The notes below the pieces were generated by a model, which saw nothing but the letters and a program-made list of their open reading frames with translations, ran no database searches and had not been told where the DNA came from. Both the position numbers and the translations under genes were made by a program. From Octopus vulgaris (taxonomy: Eukaryota), in NCBI GenBank assembly GCA_951406725.2, contig OX597822.1:74524001-74588000 (forward strand): a stretch of 64,000 nucleotides of DNA, written 5' to 3'. Positions 8,157-63,817 of the stretch are shown here, piece after piece; positions within the stretch are counted from its first letter, which is position 1, and every line of letters begins with the position of its first letter.

Positions 8157-8582
8157 ATATATATATATTTACATATATATATACATATATACACACGTAT
8201 ATGTGTGTACATATATATGTATGTATTTACATGACAAGCTTCTTCTAGTTTCCGTCTACCAAATCTACTCAAGGCTATAGTAGAAAACACTTGCCTGAGG
8301 TACCACACAGTGGGACTGAACCCGGAACCATGTGGTTAGGAACCAAGCTTCTTACCACACAGCCACTCTTGCACCTGCATTGTTCATTTTTAGAATGGCA
8401 TTGTAGGCTATGTGTGAGAGGTTGGCTCTGGCTAGATTCAACATGAAAGAAGTAGAATATTTATTCATACCAGGTGTGGCTTGTTTAAATTCTAAAAGGT
8501 TAAACATTATCATCACTGTCTGTGTTAATGCCGCCATTCTTTTCCTAACCTTAACATTTTCCACATTTTCTTCTTTTTTTAG

Positions 8583-21990: not shown

Positions 21991-24229
21991 CATAAGTTTC
22001 CACTAGTTCAACCACTACTGACTTCACCCCTCACTTTTGCACAAACTAGTGAGATTAATGCATTCAGTACACAGCCTGAACATCAGCAGGTTGATATTTT
22101 GTTAGAAAAACACAGGAAATGAACCAGGTATGAATGCTTGCAATAAAGTCACATAAGTAGTTCCATTTCTCTAAAACTTTTGGTTTCGATGTGTATATAA
22201 ACAGATTGGTTGCTTGCTTTCCTGTGATGTTTGCTCATCATCAGTCTGGAGTAGACTGATGATGACCAATGGCTCTGAAATTAATCTCTGGATGCTAGCT
22301 TTGCTAAGTGGAGGTGCTTGTCTACACTTTGAAGACATAAGGACACAGGAAATGTGTCGTGTCCAACAGCAAACGGTGTTTCCTAGGGCTAAATAGCAGT
22401 AGCATTCTTCCCTTTCATGGGACTTTCACATTGACAACATACTATCACTTTAAATATTATCTTGTTTGGGAACAGATGAGTGTTGGGGCAAGGAGAGCAT
22501 CTGACCATAGAAATTCAGCTTCAACATATTCTGTCTGACCCACGCAAACATCAAAAAGCGGGCATTAAATTATGACGATGATGATGATGATGATCTTGGT
22601 TGAAAGAGATAAAAAGGAGTGGTTTGTGCATGAGGACAGAAAAAAGTTAGAAAAGGGAAGTGGAAAAAAATTATCTTGTTCAATATTTTGTACAGAAAGA
22701 TCAAGTTTCTTATCTTTCATTCCTCTCTACTCAAGAAATTGCAATTGAGTTCAGCCTGATATTCTGGATCTAAGAGGTTTGGCATCCTGTTTTCAAGTGA
22801 GTAAGCATGTTGTATTCATGATTTGAATATAAATTGGGTTTCAAATGTCTGTTCATCATCATCATCATCATGATCGTTGTTTAATGTATTTTCCATGCTG
22901 GCATGGCTTGGATGGTTTTTACTCGGGACTGTCAAGCCAGTAGGCTGCACCAGACTCCAATCTGATCTGGCAATGTTTCTACAGCTGGATGCCCTTCCTA
23001 ATGCCAACCACTCCGAGAGTGTAGTGAGTACTTTTTACATGCCACTGGTACAGGAGCCAGTCAGGCAAGCCTGGCATCAATCACATTTGAATCGTGCTTT
23101 TTATGTGCCACTAGCACAAGAGCCAGTCAGGGGGTACTAGCATCGGCCATGTTTGGATAGTGCTTTTTACATGCCACTGGCACAGGAGCCAGTCAGGCGG
23201 ACCTGGCATTGACTGCATTTGGATGGTGCTTTTTATGTGCCACCATCACTGTAGCCAGTCAGGTGGACTTGGCATTGACCACATTTGGATGGTGCTTTTT
23301 ATGTGCCACCAGCACAGGAGCCAATCAGGTGGGCCTGATATTGACTGCATTTGGATGGTGCTTTTTACTTGCCACCAGCACAGGAGGCACTGGCCACAGC
23401 TACGATATTGGTTTTACTTGACTCGACATCTTCTCAAGCATATCATATCGCACAATGCATCAGGGGTACCTTGTATACCATGGAGAATTTCGTTAATATG
23501 GATTGAATGAATATATACATTGGCCCTTGAATTTGTTTTCTCCTCTCCTTAATTTTATATGTATATGTATATTACATATTCCTACTTAAGTCTGTCATAA
23601 GTTTTGTTTATAGAAAATAAGATACTTTTTGCCTTTGTCCAAGAACACAAAGGTAAACATTCTTCTTCACAAATGACTAACTGAGATACTTCATAATGCC
23701 ACATCAGAAATTCCTGTCTCTTTGGAATGTCCTCAATCTCATGTTGTGCATCTCTGCCTCTAGTATCAGTTATCTTTTAACATTTAAATTGGTCACGTCC
23801 TGCTGAAATATCCAACCTGTTTTATGTTCAAACAGGCTAGATCTGGCCATTTACACTACCCCTAAGTCATTCTAAAAATTTTTTTAAAATACATCATCAA
23901 AATCTCAAAGCAGCAAAATATTCTATAATTAAATCAAAACAAAATGTTTAGATAAGAACTGCATTTAATAGAATAATCTGAATTTTAAAGGGTCAACTAT
24001 TCTTCATTTCCCTCCATTCCTTTTTTTTTTTTTTTTTTTTTTTTTATTCAGAGTGGTAGTCTCCATGATATAATAATTTATATGGCATCTCTACCACTAA
24101 CATTCTTTCTATGAGAGTAGAAATTTCTTGGATATAATTGACATGGTGTCTCTGACAACAGGATTAACTGAGTGATCCTCATCCTGCTTTAGGCTGTGGA
24201 AGTCTCCAGAATAAACAACTTTATGGCTT

Positions 24230-32725: not shown

Positions 32726-34272
32726 TGTAGGTGAAATACTGTATCAAGAAGTTGCGGCCATGATGCTGAGCATGAAGTTGTGGCTGTGATGCTTCTGCCT
32801 GGTTCACTTGTACAGGAGTTTGTACAGGTTGTATATTCGCTGTTGATCCATGGTGAAGTAATTCACAAACAGTGAACTGTTGGAACCTGGGTGAGTTGCT
32901 TGCAGAGCTGTGTACGTAGGGATGATGTTGATGATGTTAAGAAGGACATGATAGTGGTGACGAGGACGGAGGTTGCCGTAATGCTGTTTGATGAAGTTGG
33001 CAAGTCTTAACATAACTGCTGTGGAGTTGTCACTGGAATTGGATGTATCTTTGTAGTCAGTGGCTAGATCTTAAAAGGTCTGGAACCAAAGACCTCGGAA
33101 CAAGGAAAAACTGAGTTTTTATAAGGAGCTGTAGACTTAAGCAGGGTTGTAAACAGGCTGTCCCACCTGATCCTATTTAGGGCTTCCAACTGGTTATACA
33201 GGGCAAGTTGGCACAACAGAGTAAGAGACAAATTGCATCAATGCCAACCAATCAGAGTAGTGGACACAATGTGATCCAAATAGCGGCCAAAGGCTAGCTG
33301 CTCCCTGCTACGTTCGAATGCACATATATATAATATATAGGAGAGTGGAATTTCACCTGAGTCTATGCTACATATCTATGTATTTGTGGGTCTGTGTTCG
33401 TCCCTCCACCATCGCTTGACAACCGAAGTTGGTGTGTTTGCATCCCCATAACTTAGCGGTTCAGCAAAAAGAGACCCATAGAATAAGTACAAGGCTTACA
33501 AAGAATAAATCCTGGGGTCAATTTGTTTGACAAAAGATGGTGCTCCAGCATGACTGCAGTCAAATGACTGAAACAAGTCTAAAAAAATAAAATAAAATGA
33601 ATGGATGAAAAGCAAAATTTGAAAAAAACTGTAAAATCAGTCATTAAACATCGAATGGTTTTGAGGGTCCACCAGAATAAATCGGTAATGAAAAGGGTCT
33701 ATAAGTGAAAAATGGTTGGGAATCCTTCAACTAAATGATTAGTTGTGATAACAAAGAACAAATAATTAAAAAAAAGCAAGGTGAGACAACCCCGAAAATT
33801 TCATGAAATATAGAATATAGTGAGGATCGATAAAGCAAAAAGCAAAGTAATTAGAACATTTCTATAAGAGATGAAAGTAATAACTGTACTATAAAGTAAT
33901 GCTTGTCGACACTTCAACATGACTGTTCCGTACGAACCGACCTAACTACCATTTTTGAACCCCAAAAGGGCACCTCCTCTTGCTTGTTATCAATGCAACC
34001 TGTACGTGAATGTGTCTGGGGTTATCAGTTGTGCTAGCATATTGACTCCCCTTCACATGTTATTTTTATTTAATTTTATTCTGGTGGGGTTGTCTCGGTC
34101 TTTTCTGACTATTATTGGGATCGTTCAGGTAATGATCATTTTCACTACTCAAGATATATATATATATATATATATATAAAGTTAATTCAAGCAAGAAAGC
34201 ACAAAAAAAAACACAGCAACGCGAGGACGTGGAACAAATATAGTATTATTGGACGCTCAGGAAAGAAGGAGG

Positions 34273-34307
34273 GTTTAACGTTTCGAGCGGAGCTCTTCGT
34301 CGGAAAC
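34273..34307 (-). ncRNA. Hammerhead-like motif with variant core CCGACGA (same family as 58107)
   Basis: Minus strand GUUU-CCGACGA-A-GAGC(UCC)GCUC-GAAACGUU/AAAC. Confidence 0.55.
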
Positions 34308-34455
34308 ATAGGAGAAAGAAAGATCCAGAGAAGGGAAGACAGATGGGAAAAAATCTCCAACGGTACACACGAGGTCACATTTTGAAAGACCGGAAGGAAA
34401 AGATATATATATATATATATATAATGTGATACAAGTCTTTGGTGTTGCAATTGCA

Positions 34456-34549: not shown

Positions 34550-35467
34550 ACATCCTTTGTGTTCTGTTTTTTATTTCATTTGATACATATATCCTCTCAC
34601 CTCTGCTACTAACTGGCATATACAGGTGCTTATACTTATCAAGTATTCACCCTGAATTTATATATATATATATATATATATAAAGATATGCCGATATTTT
34701 TTATTTATTCATTGTTATTATTATTGTTTTTGCGGAGTTTCAGTAACACCCGATAATAAACAAACAGAAAAAGGAGTTGTGCTTTTTTTTTTTCTTTAAG
34801 TATTCTGTTTCGTACATGGATATTAGATTCTCGAAGATTTTCTCTTTTCTCCCCAGAATTAAATTTTTTTCTTTTTTTCTCCATATTTTATACTCCAATT
34901 CTGTCACTTTTCTTTCCCCATGAAGTACTAATAATTATTCCGAAACACTTTTTTTTTGTGTTCTTTACGGCATCAAGCAAGTATGCTACCTGTTATCTTA
35001 TAATTTTTGCTCGTATTATTGACTGTTACGAAACCATCATTAGTTTCCTCGTAGTTTGCTGTTTCTTGTAGACTAGACATGTGTAAGAAGAGATAACGCC
35101 GGTGAATGATGAGAAATATTTAAATAATAATGAAAGAGGAGTAATGAGTGAGTGAGAAAGAGAGGGGGTAGTGAAATGACAGAAAAAATAGGAAAAATTA
35201 AAAAGAATGAAAGAAGAATGAAATGAACAAAATAAAACCAAAAGGGTGTGTGAACGGAAAAAATGTAAAAGCTGCGTAAGGAGCGATGTGAATTAATGAG
35301 AAATTAGAGGGAGAGAGAGAGAGAGAGAGAGAATATGGAAATGAGAGTAAGACCAGAGAGTGAGGAAGGGTGGTGACAAAGTGAGGAAGATAGAGTAAGA
35401 GACATTTGTATCAACATATTGCAACGTTGAAGTCCTATGTTACGGACGTCGTCAAGTGCGAGAGACC

Positions 35468-35641
35468 ATGGAAACTATACCAGTCGATGAACCTTTATTT
35501 ACCAAAGTAGCATCAGATGTTCTTGGCTCAGAAGGCCCTGTCTTTGATAAATCAGGTTGTTTTTACGTTGTTGCTCCTGAAGTCGAAAAAAACAATAAAC
35601 CAGCCGGTCAGATATTGTGTGTGAATTTGAAAACAAATAAA
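35468..35641 (+). CDS. Squid-type diisopropyl-fluorophosphatase (DFPase) exon 1, 58 codons
   Basis: METIPVDEPLFTKVASDVLGSEGPVFDKSGCFYVVAPEVEKNNKPAGQIL closely resembles the Loligo DFPase N-terminus as I recall it (MEIPVIEPLFTKVTEDIPGAEGPVFDKNGDFYIVAPEVEVNGKPAGEIL); ACCATGG Kozak context; GTAAGT donor in phase 0. Confidence 0.93.
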
Positions 35642-37016
35642 GTAAGTGAAGAAAGATTTTATCGTTCGAAATCGATCATCTTTTAAAAGATATTCTTTTT
35701 TTTTTTTTTGTACATAGATAGGTTCCTAGGAAACAGAGAAGTAGGTAAGGCGGCTCTGTTTTACGTGCGGACGAAAATATAATAGGTCCAGCTGAGAATC
35801 TAAACCGGAGTTGCGGTCTTTATTTGAATAAAGCAAATACTTCTTAATGCTTTAGTTGTTGCAAAAGATCCCTGATAATCCATTACTTGGGCCTCTGACT
35901 TAATTTATACTACACGACGATTTTTTCATATGCTTTTAATTCAAGTTTCTGTGGTTGAGAACTGAGACCATTCTTAATATTGATTAGTATCTATCTATCA
36001 TTCTATCTGTCTGTCTAACCTTAATTATCTATCTATCTATCTATCTATCCACACACACACACACACATATAGACAATTAAACAAATGTATATTGTGAGAT
36101 CGAAAAAGTGGTGGATTAAAAATTCGAAGGAGAAAGTGCTTATTGTATTTCCACGTGGAAGGTTATGCAATATGAATATAGAATCAATTATATTAGTATT
36201 TATTCCGACATTCATAGTTCAGTGGTTATTCATTTCCTTGAATAGGCGCCGAATCACATCATATCACGTTTGTATGATAGAAAAGAAATTAGGTTAGTTA
36301 CGACTTCGTCAAAAAGAATTAATCATTTGAATAAAAGAGACACGGTTATCTAAACTGAAAATGCAAACGAAAATCTAAACTGGTTGTCGGTCTCGTATTT
36401 CCCGGAATTTGTGGATATCGAACAAGAATCACAGCTCTTGTTGCACTAAATTCTGAACAGTTGCCGTATTTACTCGTGTATACGTTACACCGATTTGTGC
36501 CTGATTTTATCTGAAAATACTGGGGTGCGACTTACACGCGGAGCAAAGCTAAAACTATGAAGGAAGAAAAAATTGCACCAAGATTTAGTTATGCGATTTA
36601 TGCAGTAATAACACCCGTTTGCAATGAGTTTAAAATTTGTCCGGTTTAATTTTGTCTTTCATTCTTCCGGAATCAAAGAAAAAGTGCCAGCTGTTTACAC
36701 TTTATTACATTAACCATTTCTCCTCCCCACCACCACCACCACACACACGCACACAAAAAGAAAGTGTATGGTATTACACCTCACACCGTACATATCCGGG
36801 TCGAGTGCTGGTTTAAATACCTTGTGGTAATAGTTACATTCCTTTGCGGTATAGACGTAACATTGAGGTCCCGCCTTCAAACCAGGGGGAGTTAATGCAA
36901 ACACTGAAGATACTTTCATAGAGAAAATGAAAGCACTATTATCAGCTGGTAACAATTAACAAAATTAATTTTTTTTATAAACAGAAATGTTTATAAAGGC
37001 GCAGGAGTGGCTGTGT

Positions 37017-37649: not shown

Positions 37650-39585
37650 CATTTTTTTTTTTTTTACGGAAACTCGCGTTTTCGGCTATGGAGATTCCGA
37701 TTCTAAAAAAAAATAAATAAATAAAAGGCAAAAATCGCGACTTCAAAATTTCAGATTTATCCCCCCCCCCACTCCCCTCCTGCCATTTCTTCATTTTTTT
37801 TTTTTTTTTTTTTACTTTTTCTCAGAAACTTGGGTGTGAAATACGTAGAGAAATACAGAGATTACGATTCTGAAAACAAACTGTTTGTACATTTTCAATC
37901 TCCTCCCGCTACCCACCCACCCCAAAAAAAAATTAACCAACCCCCTTCCCCCCGATTCTACGGCCTTTATACAGGCTATCTACATGCTAGAAATAACAGC
38001 CAAATCTCACACAAACTCTTTTTTTTTTTTTTTGGCACATACGTACATACTCTGTATCGAATGCCTTGCGTTGTGCATTCCTACACAAGTGTACACCCTC
38101 GAGTTTGTTGCCTTTTAACTTTCAGAAAATTAATATTTTTTAATAAAATTGTCGACATATAGACTGCGATAAAATAATGAAAGATAAATGTAATCAATCT
38201 ATCTACACTCACGATCGCACGCATGCATATATATATATATATATATATAAACATACAAAACAATTCTAAATTGCTTATAATCATTGCCTTGATTGTCATC
38301 AACTAAGGAGTTAACATCATCACTTTTATCATCATTATCATCATCATTAAGTCTGCAGTAATTATTTTTGTGTGGTCTTTTCACTAAAAATATATAAATC
38401 ATCATCATCATCATACATCTACGTCTAACATCCATGTACCTCGCAGTACTTCAAATCCTGTGGGGGTGGTGTCAGCTCCATGCCAGTAGACAAGGGAAAG
38501 AATCTATGAGAAGGAGGTGCGGTAGTGCAGGTTTTCGTGGAGGACCAGTGTGGTTGCTAATATCTAGCAGGGGAAAAGGGTAAAGATCCCGTTTGGTCAT
38601 GAATGGCCATGAGATTACACCTAGGAAGTTCGGTCAGTATAAAGATCCTCACACGGGAACAAAACAAAAAAAAATAACCATCCTGGTGGTGGGGTGTGTT
38701 AATAAGTGTGTAGAAAACGAATATGTAAAAGCAAATGTTCACTGACGGATGGGGAGGGGAATTCGGAAAATTCGCAAGATACGATTTTTCCGTCATTTTT
38801 CACTTTTTCCATTTTTTGGGGGCGTTTTTTTTTTTTTTTTTGTGAAATACGTAGAAAAATACGAAGATTACGATTCTGGAAAAAATTTGTTTGTAAGATT
38901 TCAATTTTTCAACAAGAAAAAAAAAACAAGAATATATAGGCGCAGGAGTGGCTGTGTGGTAAGTAGCTTGCTAACCAGCCACATGGTTCCGGGTTCAGTC
39001 CCACTGCGCGGCATCTTGGGCATGTGTCTTCTACTATAGCCCCGAGCCAACCAATGCCTTGTGAGTGGATTTGGTAGACGGAAACTGAAAGAAGCCTGTC
39101 GTATATATGTATATATATGTATATATATGTATGTATGTGTGTGTATATGTTTGTGTGTCTATGTTTGTCCCTCTAGCATTGCTTGACAACCGATGCTGGT
39201 GTGTTTACGTCCCCCGTCACTTAACGGTTCGGCAAAAGAGACCGATAGAATAAGTACTGGGCTTACAAAAGAATAAGTCCCGGGGTCAAGTTGCTCGATT
39301 AAAAGGCGGTGCTCCAGCATGGCCGCAGTCAAATGACTGAATCAAGTAAAAGAGTAAAGAGTATATACCCTCAGGCCTTCAGCAGGCTATCCACATGCTA
39401 GAAATAACAGCCAAATCTATAAAAAAAACTTCGATAACATAACGAAATTTTGAAAATGCGATTTATAAAAAAAAATTTTCAGAATCGGAATCTCCATAAC
39501 CAAAAACGTGGGATTCCGTAGAAGAAAAAATCAATATATATAAAGAAGTTATGACGAAAAAATCGGATCTTGTGAATTTTGTTTT
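37650..39585. mobile_element. Nested degenerate TIR elements with direct and inverted segments, plus a SINE insertion
   Basis: 37665-37752 is inverted relative to 39445-39525; 37836-38008 is repeated at 38842-39418 (split by a SINE); TIR-like pair 38768-38795 / 39551-39580. Confidence 0.55.
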
Positions 39586-40778: not shown

Positions 40779-41891
40779 GATAGCCGATTATTTTCCCTCA
40801 TTGTAAGATTGCATATGACAAACGCCTATTTTCGTTAGTGTTTAAGTAATTTGGCGCCAGAAGTGTACACTGTGTACATACAAATTGTTCGTTCCTTTTT
40901 TTTTTCTGTTTACAAAGCATTTCATCTGTCTACAGTTCTCTCGCTGGGGCTTAGTCCAGACCCACGTAGTCAAGAATTGAACACCTTAACTGCATACCCA
41001 TCCTGTGTGTGTATGTGTATGTTTATTTGTAAGGCACGCCGTGTCTTATGATGGTGCTCTTAACATACTATCCAGATTTGACTGACCAGAACTAGAGAGA
41101 CAGAACTGTTTACCGATAAAATGCTTTGTTGATAGAAAGAAGTAAACAAACAATTTGTATTGAGACAGTGAATGCCTTTGGCGCCAAATTACTTAAACAG
41201 ACACCCAAAATATGGGTTTGTAATATGCAATCTTACAATATGAGAAAAAATAATCGGTAATTTTTCAGAGTAATAGCCGCACGATTTTCACGAAGAAAAA
41301 AAAAAACAACTCGGATATTTTGCATGGAATCAAGGACCCTGACCTCCTAATATGTTACAAATCCCTTCTTTATTTTGGTTGGGAAAAGGAGGGGAGGGGG
41401 AGAATTCCTGTGACATCCTAATATGCTACAAAACTCTTTGGTGGGGGGGGGGGGCGTAAAACGGAGTGGGGTCAGGTTGAAGCCTCGGAAATTTCATCCA
41501 CCCCCACCCTCATTAATCTTTTCACCAGCCCGATTTTCACTAAGGAAAAAAAAAAAAAAAATTTCAATGAAACCGGGACGGAATTCCCTAACCCTAACCT
41601 TAAAACCCTAATCCTAACCCGAGGCTTGTACCTCACCCCAACTCCGTTTTTCGGACCCCAAAAAGGGTTTTGTAGCATATTAAGATGTCACAGGAATTCA
41701 TTCAACGGAAAAAAATTTCCAATGAATCCGGGAACGGGGATACCCCTTTCCCCAACCAAAATAATGGATTTGCAGCATATTAGGAGGTCAGGGTACTTGA
41801 TTCCAAACAAAAAATCCGATTTTTTTTCTTTTTTTCTTTAATGAAAATCATGCGTGTGTTACTCTGATAAATTACCAAATAATCGGCTATC
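40779..41891. mobile_element. Older TIR element interrupted at its right end by the 41256 element
   Basis: Left GATAGCCGATTATTTTCCCTCATTGTAAGATTGCATAT...; right ...ATATGCAATCTTACAATATGAGAAAAAATAATC|insertion|GGCTATC. Confidence 0.75.
41256..41876. mobile_element. Long-TIR foldback (Mutator-like) non-autonomous element with 8-bp TSD and internal CCCTAA repeats
   Basis: Termini GGTAATTT...AAATTACC; ~190-bp imperfect inverted arms; AAATAATC duplicated at 41248-41255 and 41877-41884. Confidence 0.85.
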
Positions 41892-45630: not shown

Positions 45631-46849
45631 TTGATAAAGAACATGGAAATACAAAAGGTTACATTCACAAGAGTAAAAAATGTGAGTGCATGTTTAGATA
45701 GATATATGAATGCATATACAAATGTATGTACATTAGTGTTGTATAAATGTATATGTATGTATATGGCAAAATCTTTCAAAAGTCATTCAAATAAAGGCTG
45801 TATATGGGAGTTTGCAAGTAGATTTTGTTAGTTTAACCCTTCCGTTGCTGTATTTATTTTGAGATGCTCTGTGTTTCTTTCAATTAATTTTAAATATAAC
45901 CAAGAATTTAGTAAAATAATTTAGGTATCATTAAGCTAGTATTAGGAACATAAATTGTGACTGAGGTTTGGTGGAAGATTTTAATTCAAAACCTATTGAA
46001 ACAAGACATTTGTATTCAGAGCCAGAGCTGGTTTCAGCCAGGTTGTTATCAAAAGGGTTAAGAATTGTTTCTCTATTACATACTTTAACCCTTTTGTTAC
46101 CATATTTCTGTTGAGGTGCTTTGTGTTTCTTTCAATTAATTTTAAATATAACAAAGAACTTAGTAAAATAACTTAGTTATCATTCAGCTAGTGTTAGGAA
46201 CATAAATTGTAGCTAAGGTCTGGTGGAAGATTTTAATTCAAAACTTATGAAAGCAAGATATTTGTACTACAGAGCCAGAGCTAATTTCAGCATTGTTGGT
46301 AATGAAAGGGTTATCTCAAGTATTCAGATTAACTCTAATGTTCATCTGTCAAACATGATTCCTATTTATTCACATTGCTTCCAGTTGATCATGCCTTATC
46401 TCACATGTTTTTACTCTCATGAATGTATATCATTTCATGCCTCTCCAGTTATAAGCTTCCAAACGCACCCATGTGTTAATATTGTTTTCTTTTAGAACTT
46501 AGATGAAATTAAAAATATAATGCTGTGGAGTACTTAGTTCTATATATTGCAATATGTCCATTCTAGCATGATTATCATCTTGATCACCTTGACTGACCAG
46601 TCCGTCGGGGATCCATTTGACACCACTCCTCTTTGGATTGCGCCTTTCTCATCCACGTGATCCCAATCACCCACCTGAAATTGTAACTCCACCATCGTGG
46701 AGGTCTTCTGAGTGGTCATTTCTGCTCGCATGGGCACCACTCATCAACTGTGCAGGTCCACCGACCATCGGTGAGCCAGGCGACGTGTAACCCATCCAAA
46801 CCTACTGCGCACATACTCCATGACGACATCCTTCTGACCACATGAACTT

Positions 46850-52872: not shown

Positions 52873-55819
52873 AGCAAAGTAGCTATTAGCAACAGAAGCA
52901 CCCTTTGTAATGAATGTTAATTAGAACGTTCAACTTAACACGGATATGTTGTTAAGAACAGCATAGACTGCAGTAATCTTTATGAGATATCCTCTTGTAT
53001 AGACATTAGGTTCTATAAATAACATAAATCATATCTATACTTTTTATAACACCTAATATCTATCAATGTTCAAAATGACACATCCAAGTTAAGAAGGATG
53101 TACCAATTAATATTCAGTCATTTATTAAATTGATTTAAGTATTCAATCTTTTAGTTTTAACTTTGATATCCTTTAGTGCTGTACTTCTAAACCAGGGTCC
53201 AAATAAGATTTTGTTGTTAAAATTTATAAGCAATAAATTGCTTGTACTTACTTCTACAAAACATAAAATATTTTATAGTGTTTTTTTTATGCAATTCTTA
53301 ATAATGTTTAATCATAAAAATACCACAGGATTTTTTTTTATATAATAAGGTGCAGGAGTGGCTGTGTGGTAAGTAGCTTGCTTACCAACCACATGGTTCC
53401 GGGTTCAGTCCCACTGTGTGGCACCTTGGGCAAGTGTCTTCTACTATAGCCTCAGGTCGACCAAAAGCCTTGTGAGTGGAATTGGTAGACAGAAACTGAA
53501 AGAAGCCCATCATATATATGTGTGTATATGTTTGTGTGTCTGTGCTTGTCCCCCTAACATCACTTGATAACCAATGGTGGTGTGTTTATGGCCCTGTAAC
53601 TTAGCGGTTCAGCAAAAGAGTATGATAGAATAAGTCCTGGGGTCGATTTGCTCGACTAAAGGGGTGCTCCAGCATGGCAGCAGTCAAATGACTGAAACAA
53701 GTAAAAAAGTAAAGGGGGTGCTGAAAAGTTCCTGGCATTGGGTAAAAGAAAATACAGGAGGATCAGTTAATTATGATTTTATTCAACATATTCCCCTCTC
53801 AGATTCACATATTTATTACAGCAGTCCTTCAGTTTTTCTAAGCCCTATAAAAGAACTTGGAAAGTTAGGCCTCCAACCAGGCCTTTAGTGATACGATACC
53901 GTTAAAGCCAGGAACTTTTCAGCACCCCATTGTACATCGAATGACTATGGGGATCTAGTAGAGTGAAATAGGAATCAAAGGGCTCCATAGACAAAAAACA
54001 GTTGAGAACCACTGTTTTAGGGTGCTAAACAAAAAATGTTACAGATTTTCTTTTATAATGTTTTTGCCACCTGACTAGCTCCTGTGCCCGTGACATGTAA
54101 AAAGCACCATTCAAGCATGGTTGATGCCAGTGCTGACTGACTGGCTCCTGTGCTGGTGATACATAAAAAGTACCATTCAAGCATGGTTAATGTCAGTGAC
54201 ACCTGACTGGCTCCCATGCAGATGGTATGTAAAAAGCATCATTTGAGCAAGATCAATGCCAGTGCTGCTTGACTGGCTCCCATACTGGTGGCACATAAAA
54301 ACCACCACTTGAGCATGGTCGATGCCAGTCCCACCTGACTGGCTCCTGTGCCAGTGGCATGTAAAAAGCATCATTCGAGTGTGGTTGTTGCCAGTCCTGC
54401 TTGACTGGCTCCCATGCCGGTGACATGTAAAAAGCACCATTCAAGCGTGGTCGATGCCAGTACTGCCAGTGGCACGTAAAAAGCACCCCCTACACTCTCA
54501 GTGGTTGGTGTTAGGAAGAGCATCCAGCTGTAGAAACCTTTCCAGATCAGATTGGAGCCTGGTGCAGCCCCCCGGCTTGCCAGTCTTCAGTCAAACCATC
54601 CAACCCATGCCAACATGGAAAGCAGATGTTAAACGATGATAATGATGATGATGATAGTTTATTTCTTTTGCATTCTTATATTTTCATAGACTTTTGATTA
54701 AAACAGTTCTTTTTTAAATTTCCAAAGTCTTGTTGTTTGCTTGCTTGAAGTTGGTTGTGTGGTTAGATGCAGGCATGGGTGTGTGGTTAAGAAACTTACT
54801 TTGCAGCTAAGTGGAACAGGGTTCAGTCCCACTGTATGGGAACATTGCAAGTGAATTTGCTAGACAAAAACTGTGTGGAAGCCCACCATATATGTGTGTG
54901 TGTGTGTACACATACTCCACTTTGCAACTGGTGTTGGTTTGTTTATGTCCCCATAACTTGTTGCTCAGCAAAATAGTCCGACAGAATAAATACCAGGCTT
55001 AAAAATAAGTACAGAGGTCAATCTGTTTGGCTTAAAAAGAAAACCTTTAGGATAGTGCCCCAGCATGGCCACAGTCCAATGAATGAAACAAGTAAGAAAA
55101 ATGCCTCAGAGACACAGTTATGTTCTTTAAAGTCAAACTTCAACAGGTTTGAATGGCACAAAATATCCTGATGACTTCCATTAACTGTCCATGTTGTGTG
55201 CTTTCAATCGATGTCAGAAATATTTGATTAATTTGAAACACAGGAGTTCAAGTCCAAGAGGGAGTCGATGTCGATGGTACCATAAATTGATAAATCAATG
55301 TCTGCGTCAATACTGAATCAGTCACTTCTTGTTTTCATGTATTGTGTTTGAGAAGTTTTGATGAGGTTATCAATATCTGGTGTGTTATTTCTTTTGTATT
55401 TCTTTTTTAATTTGCCTTGATGGATGTATTTTTAGCCACACCTGTAATTATTTACTTAGATGCATCTGCTGCTAACTGTGCAATTATTGAATTCTGAAAA
55501 CCTGTACCAGATGTTATCTGAACAGGTGACTTTGATAAGTATATTGCCAGTTGCCAGGGTTTCTGAATGACATCAAAGCTGTTGGTAGATAGACTTTTTT
55601 ATGACATCCAACAGCTGCTATTTATTGTTCATGGTATTGCACAATACTGTTTAGACTGCAATAGTTAAACTAAAGAACTAAATGGGGAAAACAAAAGCAT
55701 ATATAACTAAGCTCAGCTTGGTGGGGGACAATTACTAATAATGTGTCAGGAGTTTTGAAGTAAGCAGAGAATGGTACCAACACCAAACAGAGAGTTTGAT
55801 AGAATAATCAGTCTGAAGT

Positions 55820-56090
55820 CTTGTGGCACTTCACTGTACAAAACTGAGCTTGAGATTCAAGAGAGATCACTGGACATTATCACCCTGGACAAAGTATCTA
55901 AAGAGTGCATCATCATAGATGTGGCTATGCTTGCTGATATGAATGTAGCAGTTAAAGGACGGGGGAAAAAATAAGGAAATACCAGGACTTAGCGAGGTAA
56001 CTGCGAAGACTGTGGAGGGTTTCTGCAAAAGCACTCCTAGTAGTTATGGGTACCTTAGGTACTGTTACCAACAAGCTCGATAGTTTTCTT
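55820..56090 (+). mobile_element. RLE-type LINE endonuclease fragment
   Basis: R.LDII..DK..KECIIIDVA...D then KYQDL...RLW...VVMGTLG (frameshifted PD..D-type motif). Confidence 0.6.
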
Positions 56091-56121
56091 TACTGGGATC
56101 AGCATAATTATAAGAGTTGCA

Positions 56122-56367
56122 TTAACCCTTTAGCATATAGATCTTTCTATCAAATGTAGAGCTTATTTACTCTTTCTCTTTTACTTGTTTCAGTCATTTG
56201 ACTGTGGCCATGCTGGAGCACCGCCTTTAGTTGAACAAATCAAACCCAGGACTTATTTTTTGGAAGCCTAGTACTTATTCTATCGGTCTCTTTTGCCGAA
56301 CCACTAAGTTATGGGGACGTAAACACACCAGCATCGGTTGTCAAGCAATGTTGGGAGACAAACACAA

Positions 56368-56410
<43 letters not shown>

Positions 56411-56815
56411 CGCGACAGCCTTCTTTCAGTTTCCGTTTACCAAATCCACTCACAAGGCCTTTGATCAACCCGAGGCTATAGTAGAAAACACTTGCCCAAA
56501 GTGCCACACAGTGGGAATGAACCCGGAACCATGTGGTTGGTAAGCAAGCTACTTACCACACAGCCACTCCTGCACCTAAACACTGTCATTGTTTTGAATT
56601 AATTATACATTCTATGTGAACCCGAGATCAATGGTTATGGTGGAATCCCTGCCGGATGTCACTTTGATAACCTCTTTTTCACCAACATGAGACTTGGGTT
56701 GAAAGTTCAATAACATTATCACAATAGCTGTGAGAGATCAGATCCGGCTGGTTTGAGCGTAAAACAGATAAAATATTTAGGCTGGATATGACTAGCTTAA
56801 TTGCTAAAGAATTAA
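56122..56815. mobile_element. TTAA-flanked MITE carrying a SINE insertion and the DFPase exon-2 copy
   Basis: TTAACCCTTTAGCAT ... TTGCTAAAGAATTAA; the flanks are homologous to the reverse complement of the 59142 copy. Confidence 0.7.
56608..56701 (+). pseudogene. Degenerate partial copy of DFPase exon 2
   Basis: Translates ILCEPEINGYGGIPAGCHFD---NLFFTNMRLGL; aligns to 58638-58740 with a 9-nt deletion; no AG acceptor at the homologous position; in-frame TAA at 56711. Confidence 0.9.
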
Positions 56816-57006
56816 TATGGATATCTACTCAATTAGGTATAGGAGTGGCTGTGTGGTAAGTAGCTTGCTTACGAACCACATGGTTCCAGGTTCAGTCCCA
56901 CTGCGTGGCACCTTGGGCAAGTGTCTTCCACTATAGCCTCAGGCCGACCAAATCTTTGTGAGTGGATTTGGTAGACGCAAACTGAAAGAAGCCTGTTGTA
57001 TATATG

Positions 57007-57049
<43 letters not shown>

Positions 57050-57920
57050 ATATGTTTGTGTATCTGTGTTTGTCCCCCCAACATCGCTTGACAACCGATG
57101 CTGGTGTGTTTACACCCCCATAACCTAGCGGTTCGGCAAAAGAGACCAATAGAATAAGTACTAGGCTAACAAAGAATAAGTCCTGGGGTCGATTTGCTTG
57201 ACTAAAGGTGGTGCTCCAGCATGGCCGCAGTGAAATGACTGAAACAAATAAAAGAGTAAAGAGAGTATTAGGAATAGCAAGGATTGTTTGAAATTCCTCA
57301 TTATCTAAGGAAAGTAACTGCGTCTCAGTATCAGGGACATTGATTCCTCTCACAGTACATTTGTACATACTTTTCCAATAATAATGGTTCCTAATTTAGG
57401 TACAAGGTCAGGGTATTAATTGGCACCATCAATTCCAGTACTTTATCAGAACTTTATTGTATTGACCCGAGAGAATTTGCGCTAGACAATGCAGTACTTG
57501 CTAATAATACAAAGGCTTTTACTATTTATGAGAACAAGCTGTCCTTTCCCATGGTACGCATGTGAAACTAGGTGGAGAAAGCAGAATATATTAGTCTTTT
57601 GTATAAAGTATTATGTTAGTAACACTAGCTTAATGAATTATTAAGGGTTTTCAAAAGATGAAAAGGTATGCATTAAGGATTGTCTGTTCAATACAGAATG
57701 TTAAGTGACACACATGGAAGTGTGAATGTGATTGAATTTTAAAAAAATGTGATCATGTAGTTATAGGCATGGCTGTGTGGTTCAGAAGCTCATTTTGGAA
57801 CCATGTGGTCTCAGGTTCAGCCCCATTGCCCAGCACTTTGGGTACGTGTCTTTGACTGTAGCCCTGGTCCAACCAATGCCTTGCAAGTGAATGTTGTAGG
57901 TAAAAAGTGTATGGAAGTTC

Positions 57921-57966
<46 letters not shown>

Positions 57967-58106
57967 TATATATATATATGTTTATACACACACACACACA
58001 CACATATATATATTTACCTATATATATGTACATATATATATATATATAATCATTGGCGATTTTTTTTTCCCTCCGTCTTCCCTTCCTTGGATCTTTCCTT
58101 TCCTAT

Positions 58107-58141
58107 GTTTCTGAAGAAGAGCTTTGCTCGAAACGTTAAAC
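58107..58141 (+). ncRNA. Minimal hammerhead ribozyme motif within a ~190-bp repeat (58050-58240)
   Basis: GUUU-CUGAAGA-A-GAGC(UUU)GCUC-GAAACGUU/AAAC. A second copy of the repeat lies on the minus strand at ~34180-34385. Confidence 0.7.
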
Positions 58142-58632
58142 CCTCCTTCTTTTCTGAGTGTCCAATTATACTATACTTGTTCCACGTCCTCATGTTGTTA
58201 TGTTTTCTCTTTGTGTTTTCATGTTCAGATTAACTTTATATATATATATATGTATGTATGTACATATATGTGTGTGTGTGTGTGTCTACCTGTCTGTTTG
58301 TCACTGTTTCTCACTGCTCCCCTACCACTTGACAGCCAGTGTTGGTTTGTTTACACCCTCATAACTTAGCCATTTGGCAAAAAAAAAAGACTAATAAAAT
58401 AAATACCAGATTTATAAAAGCTATGAGTACTGGGGTTGACTTGTTCGACTAAAACCCTTCAGTGTGATGCCCCAGCATGGCCACAGTCCAACAACTGAAA
58501 CAAGTAAAAGACAAACGATATCCTGAAGGTATCAATTGCTATACATAAGAGATAGACTTCCTAGGGCATCGAGAGGCAAATAAATGATGTGTCCTGGTTC
58601 TGTTTCTAATCATATGCCGTTTATTTTGACAG

Positions 58633-58773
58633 AATGCCATTCTCTGTGAACCTGAAATCGACGGTTATGGTGGAATCCCTGCAGGGTGTCAGTTTGATCG
58701 CCTTGATAACCTCTTTGTGGCTGACATGAGACTTGGTTTGCTTCAAGTGAAACTCGATGGAACATATAAACAG
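58633..58773 (+). CDS. DFPase exon 2, 47 codons (NAILCEPEIDGYGGIPAGCQFDRLDNLFVADMRLGLLQVKLDGTYKQ)
   Basis: GYGGIPAGCQ and LFVADMRLGLL match squid DFPase; ACAG acceptor and CAG|GTAAAC donor, phase 0/0. Not listed in the ORF track. Confidence 0.95.
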
Positions 58774-59141
58774 GTAAACTCAATGATTTCCCTTCATTTT
58801 AACAAGCTTTGATCACTTTTCTAGGCTCCCAAGTAGTAAAGATCATTCATGCTATCAATCACACATTTTTTTGTCTTGCTTGTCTTACTATTCATGATGG
58901 CATTCCGCCGGTTAGGGATGAGAACTAATTTCAAATGCAAAATACTATATGCTTTTTCCAGTGACAAACTGTCGCTGGTCTCAAAAACGTGGAAACAAGC
59001 AATAATAAATCTCTTAGCGAGATGTAAAACAATAGCAGCACGACATCATGAAGTATATTTGCCACCTAAATGTGGAGAGATTTATTATTGATTTTTCAAT
59101 TATTTAAATAAAAAAATTCTCCTAGAAAGATAAAAGGAACG

Positions 59142-59863
59142 TTAACCCCTTAGCATTTAAGCAGGCCAAATCCAGCCCAAATATTCTACCTGCCTTACCG
59201 TAAATCCTCGAGTATAATTCACATTTTTTTCCCAAAATTTAAAGGTCAAAATCCCTAGTGCATGCTATATACGAGGTTAAAAATGAAAATTATTTTCTAA
59301 GCAATATCCGAGTCTCTATTTACTGTCCGGCAATGTTTATTGAGACGCATTTTGTTATGTCGGGCGCGAAAAAACCTTAAGCTAAGCCTGAAAGCAATGA
59401 AGTCATAAAAGAATCATCCATAACTTGCAGTAAGTAACAGTTATTAAATGTTATTACTGTTATTTCTTTATTTTCTGCAAACAAAATGCACAAAAAAGCT
59501 ACACATTTGCATTGTTATATGTACAATAATAACAAAGGACATTACCGTATACATTTTTACAAACCAAGGACGTTATATATACCTCCTTGACTCAAGTTAG
59601 AGAAGGGGTGCATATTATACACAAGGTTTAGGTTTTTCAGAGGTACAGCTCCCTAAAAATCCCCTGCGTATTATACTCAAGGGCGGACTATACTCGAGGA
59701 TTTATAGTATGTTAAACCTAATCAGATCTGGATTCTCAAACCGACTCTAAAATGTTATATTGAAAATAAACAATCTTGAAGTTACAACATAATGCATGAT
59801 TAATTGGAAACAATATGAATAAATATTACATTTGCTTGAATAATCCGAATGCTAAATGGTTAA
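59142..59863. mobile_element. TTAA-flanked piggyBac-like MITE (other copies 56122-56815 and ~23775-23996)
   Basis: TTAA-CCCCTTAGCATT ... AATGCTAAATGG-TTAA. Confidence 0.7.
59196..59709. mobile_element. TA-flanked MITE (Tc1/pogo-like) nested in a TTAA element
   Basis: TA-CCGTAAATCCTCGAGTATA ... TATACTCGAGGATTTATAG-TA. Confidence 0.8.
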
Positions 59864-61756
59864 ACTTCCATCTATCTATCAGCGATTTGCAACAATGAAT
59901 GCATAACAACAAACCTGTGGCAGTCCTGTGCCACAGGACTTAATGAGTAAAGTACATTGATTATCTATTGTTAAGTTCATGAAGACTTGTTTTGCAGTGC
60001 GGCTGATAATGTTAGCTTGAGATGCATATAGCAGGTGGTGACAATCATGCTGTTTCCAATGATATAAATCATGTGTAACAGCCACGGTTGTGACAATTGC
60101 TTATTTTTGAAAGTATATGCTTAGCTTTGTTCGATTTAAAAAAAAATTTTGTTGTCATATGTTTTTAAAGGTATTTGAGCCGATTCTTAGCAGGAAGCTT
60201 TATTTTACTTATGAATTGGGTCAGGTGTTTTAAATGTTGATAAAAGAATGTGCTGAGGTGTCATTTGTATGAGATTATATTTAGTTCAAAAAAGGAGACA
60301 CATTAGGTTGTTATTATTACAGACAAGGAAAAACAAATATTAGACAACTGTTCCTTGACTTTCATCCCATTGTAATTGGAAGAGCTGATTAGAGGCTTTT
60401 TATCAAGATATTGTGGGCGGAGCTTGTTAGGTGGCAGTCATAACTGAGGCAGTGATTAGGTGAAAGATTTAGCAAGAAGTGAGCTTGTTGCTATTTCAAA
60501 TATCTCAAAGCAGCTAATATTCTTTTCTACTCTAGGCACAAGGCCCAAAATTTTTTGGGGGGGGGGGCCAGTCGATTAGATCGACCCCAGTACGCAACTG
60601 TTACTTAATTTATCGACTCTGAAAAGATGAAAGGCAAAGCCGACCTCAGTGTTGTTTTGAACTCAGAACATAAAGACAGACAAAATACTACTAAGCATTT
60701 CTCGCCTGGCATGCTAACGTTTTTGTCAGCTCACCACCTTCAGTAGCAAGAATATTCTTTTCTACTGTAGACACAAGGCCCAAAATTTTGTAGGAAGGGC
60801 CCAGTTGATTAGATTGACCCCAGAACGTTTCTGCCAGTTCACTGCCTTCAAAGCAGCTAGTATTGACACAATAGTCAAGTGAACAACTCCTAATAAGGCA
60901 TGTAGCCTAGTGGTTAAGGTGTTGCATTTAGAATTGTATGGTCACGGTTTCAGTTTCTGAATCGGGCAATGTGTTATATTCATGAGCAAAACACTACATT
61001 TTACATTACTCCAGTTCACCTAGTCGTGAGTGAGTAAACCTGTGATGGACTGGTATTTCATCCAGGGAAAGTGTGAATGTGTGTGGCTTAGTGGTTCATG
61101 ATCATAAGGTCGTGAGTTCAATTCCCGATGTTGCATTGTATCCTTGAGCAAGGCACTTTATTTCACATTGCTCCCGTCCACTCAGCTGGTCAGAATGAGT
61201 ATTTCAAAGGGCCAACCTTGTCACACTCTGTGTCATGCTGAATCACCCTAAGAACTACAGTTAAAGGTATACATGTCTGTGGAGTACTCGGCCACTTGCA
61301 TGTTAATTTCACAAGCTTCCACACAGTTTCTGTTCTACTTCCCAAGGTGGTGTACAGTGGAACTGAACCAGAAACCACAGTTGCAAAGCAAGCTTCTTTA
61401 CACGACCATGCCTAGGGTGTGGTATAAGCTTTATTTCTAATAGGTCAAACAACCAAATAAAGGCTTTGGGTGCTGTCTACAGACTTTGAGATAGCAAGCT
61501 AGCTATAAGAAGTGCTTGTACGTCATCACATAGCTGGTATCAGATTAGAATTGGATTTTGAGCTCAATGCTATCTCAATCTTATACATACCAACTAGCTG
61601 GAGTTCACACCTGCTTCTAATCACACAGACTCCATGTTTTAAAATGATCTGAATTAAAACCTTCCACCAGTTTAATTCCTAAACACCTTCCAATTATTAG
61701 AAATATTGCATTTCTAAATCTATCAGAGAGACTTATACAGTAACAGCATTATAAAG

Positions 61757-63685: not shown

Positions 63686-63817
63686 GTTGCAACATGTGAT
63701 TCGACTGGTCAGTGTATGCAAGGCTGCAATGACTGTGCTTTTGATTATCAAGGAAATCTTTGGATTACAGCTCCAGCAGGAGATATTGCCCCAGCACCAT
63801 TCAGGCGATCAATGGAG
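63686..63817 (+). CDS. DFPase exon 3, 44 codons (VATCDSTGQCMQGCNDCAFDYQGNLWITAPAGDIAPAPFRRSME); gene continues beyond the window
   Basis: MQGCNDCAFDY.GNLWITAPAG matches squid DFPase, including calcium ligand N120; TTTAG acceptor and GTAAGT donor. Confidence 0.95.

Follow-up and report, generated by a model that had tools for sequence, protein, structure and literature searches.

A copy of DFPase exon 2 within a TTAA-flanked MITE in intron 1 of the octopus DFPase gene, a probable Pack-TIR made in cis

Results

The DFPase gene and its surroundings

In the window, i.e. the whole stretch of 64,000 nucleotides of Octopus vulgaris DNA that was analysed (contig OX597822.1), the plus strand encodes the 5' part of an Octopus DFPase gene, with exons 1-3 located by tblastn:

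35468..35641, plus strand: DFPase coding exon 1, residues 1-58, tblastn 100% to P0002
58633..58773, plus strand: DFPase exon 2, parental copy, 141 nt, AG/GT boundaries, phase 0 at both ends
63686..63817, plus strand: DFPase exon 3, residues 106-149, tblastn 100% to P0002

The protein encoded by exons 1-3 is identical to the Octopus sinensis entry P0002. Exon 2 matches the squid DFPase structure PDB 1e1a (E 7.5e-17), a motif of this exon is found at three further places in the squid-derived chain, and the DFPase protein carries an SGL domain (PF08450, E 3e-30). As ~44% of the 64-kb window falls in a self-hit, the gene lies in repeat-rich DNA.

Around exon 1 (35000-36500) the CpG observed/expected ratio is 1.06, compared with 0.36-0.50 elsewhere and 0.46 and 0.36 in the introns. 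By its base composition the 5' region at exon 1 would thus be unmethylated within a CpG-depleted background; gene-body methylation has been reported in octopus (PMC9476566).

Two overlapping long inverted-repeat systems, by their sequence probably foldback elements, occupy 40784-41876 (40784-40945/41096-41257, 78%; 41256-41488/41619-41876, 71%). A low-copy repeat occurs twice, ~1 kb apart (37655-38007 and 38842-39530), the match consisting of three pieces in mixed orientation, one of them SINE-interrupted. Moreover, a 175-bp repeat is found twice, inverted, 85% identical and 24 kb apart (34179-34353 and 58063-58236), its second copy being part of a SINE-like relic that lies 400 bp ahead of exon 2. 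Broken reading frames at 55760-56115, directly left of the MITE described below, presumably resemble the C-terminal restriction-like endonuclease region of R4/Dong-type LINEs. Pfam matched none of four other ORF-like stretches, these frames included, and Rfam gave no match over 55000-60500.

A MITE with exon sequence in place of its middle

Intron 1 of DFPase, 23 kb long, contains a MITE into which a SINE and a piece of exon 2 are set. Its parts and its relatives in the window are:

56122..56125: TTAA target-site duplication, left, read from the sequence
56126..56169, plus strand: MITE left arm, part 1, starting with the terminal CCCTTTAGCAT
56170..56577, minus strand: SINE nested in the left arm, 408 bp, with a central microsatellite
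56578..56611, plus strand: MITE left arm, part 2, ending in CATT (blastn, alignment)
56608..56611, plus strand: CATT microhomology, common to the MITE (ATGCATT in the sister at 59142) and the exon (ATGCCATT)
56608..56701, plus strand: captured copy of DFPase exon 2, residues 61-94, with 14 substitutions and a 9-nt deletion
56702..56710, plus strand: right junction zone, exon-like (K-V-Q), MITE-like (GTT(C/T)A) or a junctional insertion
56710..56811, plus strand: MITE right arm, beginning with an in-frame TAA (56711-56713)
56812..56815: TTAA target-site duplication, right, read from the sequence
59142..59863, minus strand: sister MITE with intact middle, interrupted by a TA-flanked TIR element
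23771..23996, minus strand: sister MITE with intact middle, full length (226 bp, alignment)
8367-8503 and 46340-46422: partial MITE copies, collinear with both arms

The element is ~225 bp long. Of the filled stretch, 408 of the 694 bp are nested SINE, a feature that the original prediction had passed over, as it had the interruption of the sister at 59142. In blastn searches, part 1 of the left arm matches 23996-23949 (E 1.8e-4) and 59863-59827 (E 6.2e-4), part 2 matches 23942-23924 (18/19) and 59814-59791 (20/24), and the right arm matches 59198-59142 (E 2.6e-7). An nhmmer arm profile built from the four other window copies recognizes both the left arm (E 1.5e-4) and the right arm (E 1.2e-13) at collinear, non-overlapping model positions; the left arm is identical to the two sisters at 55/73 and 60/76 positions. 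The flanks of the exon copy hence belong to the MITE family, a point on which the original prediction depended. What is absent from the filled MITE is the middle, 17-32 bp of the sister at 59142 and 48 bp of the sister at 23771. The sister at 59142 was reconstructed one base short at its inner insert, which affects one alignment column.

Non-autonomous piggyBac-type elements are recognized by a TTAA duplication and CCC...GGG ends. The MITE with the exon copy, a candidate piggyBac-type element by its TTAA duplication and CCC end, shares with such elements the TTAA and the lack of coding capacity and may share the CCC...GGG ends with a TIR of ~13 bp, the assignment being based on these hallmarks. 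Kolobok would be another TTAA-targeting superfamily to consider. TTAA stands at both ends of the copies at 56122 and 59142, CCC at the left end here and GGGG at the matching end of the sister at 59142. The right terminus of the filled copy is present, with two mismatches at its tip relative to the window sisters, i.e. decayed to AAAGAA where the sister at 59142 has AAGGGG. A hairpin as fragile site within the MITE finds no support in the copy at 23771 (z -0.46). The family is not described in the consulted part of PMC13282606, one of two papers found to name octopus, MITE and piggyBac, whose repeat library may already name it.

The sister at 59142 carries an insert of ~510 bp (about 59196-59709), flanked by TA and bounded by imperfect TIRs of ~19 bp, which by these hallmarks we take to be Tc1/mariner-like. 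Overall, other elements or fillers break up or truncate three of the five MITE copies that were examined.

The captured fragment and its junctions

The segment 56608-56701 matches 58638-58740 of exon 2 on the same strand (E 6.6e-20 within the window), with the exon 1,937 bp downstream in the same orientation. The fragment of ~94 nt (94/103 nt relative to its parent) is identical to exon 2 at 79 of 93 positions (85%). It lies wholly within the exon: the stretch that it covers begins 5 nt past the acceptor and stops no less than 30 nt short of the donor. The original prediction of a TTAA-flanked MITE whose middle, present in the sisters at 59142 and ~23775 (here 23771), is replaced by ~94 nt of DFPase exon 2 from ~2 kb away, joined at a common CATT, was thus borne out in each of these parts. 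We give practically no credence to chance similarity or an assembly artefact, as the local alignment score is 95 against a maximum of 33 in 2000 shuffles, and a divergence of 15% plus an indel is unlike a mis-assembled second reading of the same exon. Among 14 two-copy-like pairs in the window, the pair of fragment and exon is the only exon-derived one; six of the other 13 were inspected more closely and are apparently low-copy repeats or foldbacks.

At the left junction CATT may be assigned to either the MITE or the exon, and at least four shared nucleotides are expected by chance with P = 0.020 (100,000 random switches). The right junction is less tidy: similarity to the exon can be followed to about 56701-56704, and from 56710 on the sequence is clearly that of the MITE (ATAACATT, 8/8 with the sister at 59142). 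The zone in between reads as K-V-Q if one codon has been lost, and K is also the residue of Argonauta at position 96. By eye, we rejected a copy that would run through the remainder of exon 2 or reach exon 3 (T-x-S-Q), ATAACATT...TGTGAGAG being better explained by the MITE sisters. Extended homeology between MITE and exon found no support as an explanation for the differences at the 5' side (against the two sisters, P = 0.57 and 0.41 for the exon and 0.076 and 0.41 for the copy).

No duplicated intron DNA was found beside exon 2 within the window, the nearest repeats ending at 58515 and starting at 59142. The fragment is therefore not part of a larger tandem duplication that includes intron sequence, the second point on which the original prediction depended, nor does the 64-kb window hold any other second copy of exon 1, 2 or 3. 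These observations bear on the idea that the fragment is the in-place remnant of a tandem exon-2 duplication, fused by deletions to two MITE halves. Such a remnant would account for the position of the fragment as well as for the synonymous excess described below, but it would need two MITEs in the same orientation and two deletions that left exactly complementary, non-overlapping arms, with no intron homology surviving. The TTAA at both ends does not discriminate here, as it is common to every MITE copy. Altogether, we regard this origin as very improbable.

Coding capacity and amino acid changes

Over 31 codons, the 14 substitutions fall on first, second and third codon positions in the ratio 4/0/10, as had been predicted; if the gap is placed differently, at no cost to the alignment, one of the third-position changes counts as first-position instead (5/0/9). 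The predicted in-frame 9-nt deletion removes three codons between two TTGAT repeats. All four first-position changes are G>A or G>T, which is the direction of neutral decay in the window and thus supports a decayed neutral copy. Five of the 14 substitutions, causing V87F, A88T and D89N, are clustered:

56678..56684, plus strand: cluster of 5/14 substitutions (P = 0.034)

The cluster possibly reflects one complex event; a micro-inversion lowers its five mismatches to three only, and no second copy of its sequence occurs in the window.

For comparison, 36 of 91 homologous hits were aligned (34 named entries including P0002 and the two top unnamed ones). In all 34 homologues with a residue at the respective site, position 78 is Q, 87 is V or I, 88 is A or S, and 89 is D. 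The fragment changes these near-invariant residues (Q78H, V87F, A88T, D89N), and since it has H, F, T and N there, the copy evolved for some time free of DFPase constraint.

Three codons before the fragment, a MITE-derived in-frame TAA (56600-56602) closes the frame, and in the sisters this upstream position is likewise a stop (TAA or TGA). Between the TAA and the fragment there is no AG acceptor, in agreement with the prediction that the copy lacks one, and no donor scoring at least 6/9 is found between 56541 and 56855. An open frame bracketed by acceptor and donor, as expected for a present-day alternative or mutually exclusive exon, is thus absent. Judging from these signals, the fragment would be non-coding now and since its capture, would be transcribed only as intron, and would do nothing as coding sequence.

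Position 68 and the sequence EINGYGG

The original prediction had seen in the N of EINGYGG, where the live exon has D, a likeness to squid. The squid-derived chains read EVNGYGG, the exact EINGYGG being that of Argonauta hians, and N68 was rejected as evidence for an ancestral or paralogue state in view of its CpG context at a variable site. The step from GAC to AAT comprises two changes. Both are CpG transitions, and the aligned live sequence has no CpG sites other than these two. CpG bases in the 16 SINE copies of the window have undergone transitions at 127 of 502 positions (0.25), ~10x the A>G rate. Among 35 homologues, site 68 is D in 14, N in 9 and G in 8. If the site is free to change, a D ancestor is favoured over N by ~7:1 before any prior. 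Argonauta shares N68, and this N would pull against a D ancestor, so that N68 appears roughly uninformative; a retained ancestral N68 would also fit capture from the same DFPase gene.

Codon-pattern tests

Against a uniform null, the distribution over codon positions has p = 0.004. This null is wrong, however, because the live exon keeps gaining only synonymous changes after capture. In its place we used a null with a constrained live exon and a neutral copy, in a codon model with the mutation spectrum of the window. In simulations under this null, the third-position share reaches two thirds or more in 3-4% of the runs, and zero second-position changes occur in 0.5-1.5%. The neutral-copy model yields t = 0.12 per lineage (95% range 0.08-0.18). 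If a constrained phase is allowed on the copy branch, the best fit is f = 0.7 with t = 0.18-0.26, and the likelihood-ratio statistic relative to the neutral copy is 3.1-4.5 over 8 settings, with the 95% range of f reaching 0 in three of the four CpG-aware settings and in none of the four without CpG. The constrained phase obtains a parametric bootstrap p of 0.017 and a Bayes factor of 4.7. The Bayes factor is 5.7 without codon 68, 12.9 without the clustered codons 87-89 and 2.4 without the first eight codons (p 0.066); it rises to 29.7 without codons 68, 78 and 87-89, an exclusion that is biased as it removes every amino acid change. Finally, the NG86 omega is 0.13-0.22, where ~0.5 is expected.

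All these values come from 31 codons of the exon and its copy, with an approximate treatment of CpG, and the pattern was chosen after the fact. Thus, the coding-type divergence noticed at first is reproduced as a pattern, and its signal survives the proper null in weaker form (p 0.004 becoming about 0.02). Selection on the live exon explains the codon bias only in part, and a modest synonymous excess remains. As the neutral-copy model under-predicts the synonymous share, this counts against the reading that we prefer, i.e. capture from the live exon followed by neutral decay.

The excess might be explained if the template of the same capture had been a functional exon-2 duplicate that was later lost, be it a tandem copy, a mutually exclusive exon or an adjacent paralogue. 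Such a duplicate would have diverged under selection by ~0.13 substitutions per site and would have been captured late (~0.05). Besides the fit at f = 0.7 and the low omega, the structure of exon 2 speaks for this origin: an additional exon of 141 nt in phase 0-0 would not shift the reading frame, and, its motif being a recurring one, it would presumably contribute or replace roughly one repeat unit. Argonauta, which shares N68, also shares K96 under the K-V-Q reading of the junction. On the other hand, the 64 kb hold no relic of another exon 1, 2 or 3 or of a duplicated intron, the D ancestor is favoured at site 68, f reaches 0 in most CpG-aware settings, the codons are few and the pattern post hoc, and one additional duplication plus one additional loss are required. 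Moreover, the Octopus proteins form one cluster among the 91 hits, with no separate DFPase paralogue beside it; this cluster consists of four sequences, and a paralogue more than 90% identical would be hidden inside. Argonauta is likewise represented by one protein (also among 8 hits). A short-protein search for other cephalopod versions of exon 2 gave only two distant matches, and 150 listed representatives, all at most 72% identical, were left out. The original suggestion of a paralogue or formerly functional exon as the source thus gains a little from the synonymous excess and loses by the lack of any paralogue or exon relic in these searches. With the prior for a lost functional local duplicate judged to be a few percent, we consider this origin rather unlikely.

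Ages of the MITE arms, the capture and the nested SINE

The arms of the filled MITE have a JC distance from the family ancestor of 0.13 in a three-point estimate and of 0.24 against the poor majority of the window copies, and the nested SINE differs from the window consensus, built from 16 copies aligned over more than 330 bp, by JC 0.059. A SINE burst has been described at JC 0.065 in PMC13282606, where a rate of 0.0036 per My is used. At this rate the arms would be ~35-66 My old, the nested SINE ~16 My and the capture, if the copy was neutral, ~33 My, all of which are rough values. Being as old as or older than the capture (0.12), the arms conform to the order that gap filling predicts.

The nested SINE has no clear target duplication beyond a possible TA. 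Close to the right end of the MITE lies a further SINE:

56833..57263, plus strand: second SINE, inverted relative to the nested SINE, 85% over 432 nt

In the pre-mRNA the two would form a stem of ~400 bp (-680 kcal/mol, computed without a shuffle control), with the exon copy in a loop of ~250 nt. This stem is likely to be a substrate of A-to-I editing, although the inverted arrangement may be due to chance, SINEs being dense here. In antisense direction the nested SINE offers a strong, pyrimidine-rich acceptor at 56193 (0.88 Y) and a GTAAGC donor at 56540, so that on sequence grounds it could be exonised alone (347 nt, frame-shifting).

Discussion

The filled MITE as a probable gap-filling product

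The collinear arms, the nearby parent, the microhomology and the absence of co-duplicated intron argue for a gap-filling capture in cis. We thus regard the fragment as probably a dead-on-arrival, single-copy Pack-TIR. A non-autonomous TIR element of ~225 bp with its TTAA duplication is resident in intron 1 of DFPase. A break inside this element would have removed 17-48 bp of its middle, and a 3' end in ...ATGCATT would then have paired with ...ATGCCATT at the start of exon 2, as the junction suggests. About 95 nt would have been copied from 2 kb away before the synthesis rejoined the right arm, a process of gap filling with template switch for which transposition would not be needed. A tract of 95 nt from this distance presumably fits SDSA-type gap filling as well. 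Subsequently, the copy, as its protein changes attest, decayed without coding constraint, presumably from the capture on, while the live exon would have gathered mostly synonymous changes, giving part of the third-position bias. The SINE split the left arm, either before or after the capture. The proposal of an old templated insertion or Pack-type capture is hence upheld by the presence of both arms around a replaced middle, the cis source, the microhomology and the lack of duplicated intron.

One point against gap filling from DNA is that the filler is wholly exonic, as a DNA template does not require an exon-only source. The template that mended the break might instead have been a transcript of DFPase itself (nascent RNA, mRNA or cDNA), which would agree with a filler that is sense-strand and exonic and with a break inside a transcription unit. 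However, the fragment spans no splice junction and has no poly(A), being too short to be informative in this regard, and only one of its 14 differences is A>G, i.e. there is no editing footprint. Moreover, an exonic bias is also seen among DNA-templated Pack-TIRs (PMC8277862), and exon matches are easier to notice. A transcript template is, in our estimate, quite unlikely.

Comparison with Pack-TIRs and other insertions

The Pack-TIR process has been described in 55 animal species, with 370 Pack-TIRs, nearly all of them single-copy (Tan et al. 2021, PMC8277862). In that set 56.9% lie within 15 kb of their parent, 67.6% show microhomology, and exonic sources are enriched 3.2-fold (PMC8277862). 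The filled MITE has in common with them a non-TE filler between the two arms of one short, degenerate TIR element, a parent less than 5 kb away in cis, breakpoint microhomology, internal breakpoints and an exonic source. It retains both arms including at least 10 bp of the termini, as judged against the window sisters, and its filler has 80-120% of the parental length (94/103 nt). There is no segmental duplication, no flank is shared, and no TE lies within 100 bp of the parent; parental copy and filled MITE are each single within the 64-kb window. The close cis parent (1,937 bp) and the CATT at the left breakpoint would place it in the gap-filling class of PMC8277862.

Because of its ~94 nt and 85% identity, the locus falls outside the filters for young Pack-TIRs, which ask for fillers >100 bp and >=90% identity (PMC8277862). 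Further differences from the published set are the larger share of the element that is missing (median 4.6% there, 17-48 of ~225 bp here), which counts against our reading, the position in an intron of the filler's own parent gene, and the residual synonymous excess, codon-level divergence of single-copy fillers not being analysed in the consulted parts of PMC8277862. Supplementary Data 1 of that survey contains 8 PiggyBac superfamily rows, several with a consensus of 188-205 bp; for the sea hare it gives 0 Pack-TIR cases, and octopus is not mentioned in its searched text and supplements (PMC8277862). In the open library that was searched, no cephalopod Pack-element paper appeared among the top 15 matches, and no paper was found that names diisopropyl, fluorophosphatase and octopus together.

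Plant Pack-MULEs likewise carry a host gene fragment between TIR arms (PMC8277862), but belong to another superfamily and are often multicopy with capture in trans, whereas here we find TTAA, a short TIR, a cis parent and a decayed right terminus. Insertions by polymerase theta or MMBIR are similar in combining a deletion with a microhomology-guided copy from nearby and an untidy second junction, although the enzyme cannot be read from the sequence of this locus.

Implications

If, contrary to our main reading, the template was a lost duplicate, the fragment would be a molecular fossil of a functional second DFPase exon 2, about one propeller repeat that was selected for tens of My, which we hold to be a slim prospect. 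In that case a dead MITE would have copied the exon before its deletion and would record an extinct DFPase isoform. Degenerate transposons would then archive extinct exons and isoforms, and old fillers in octopus MITEs could be mined for lost exons.

Taken together, the filled MITE is most likely a further case of the described Pack-TIR process, in a lineage outside that survey. If this main reading holds, a cephalopod example is added and no model is changed, and the dated neutral exon copy could serve to calibrate synonymous versus neutral rates in octopus.
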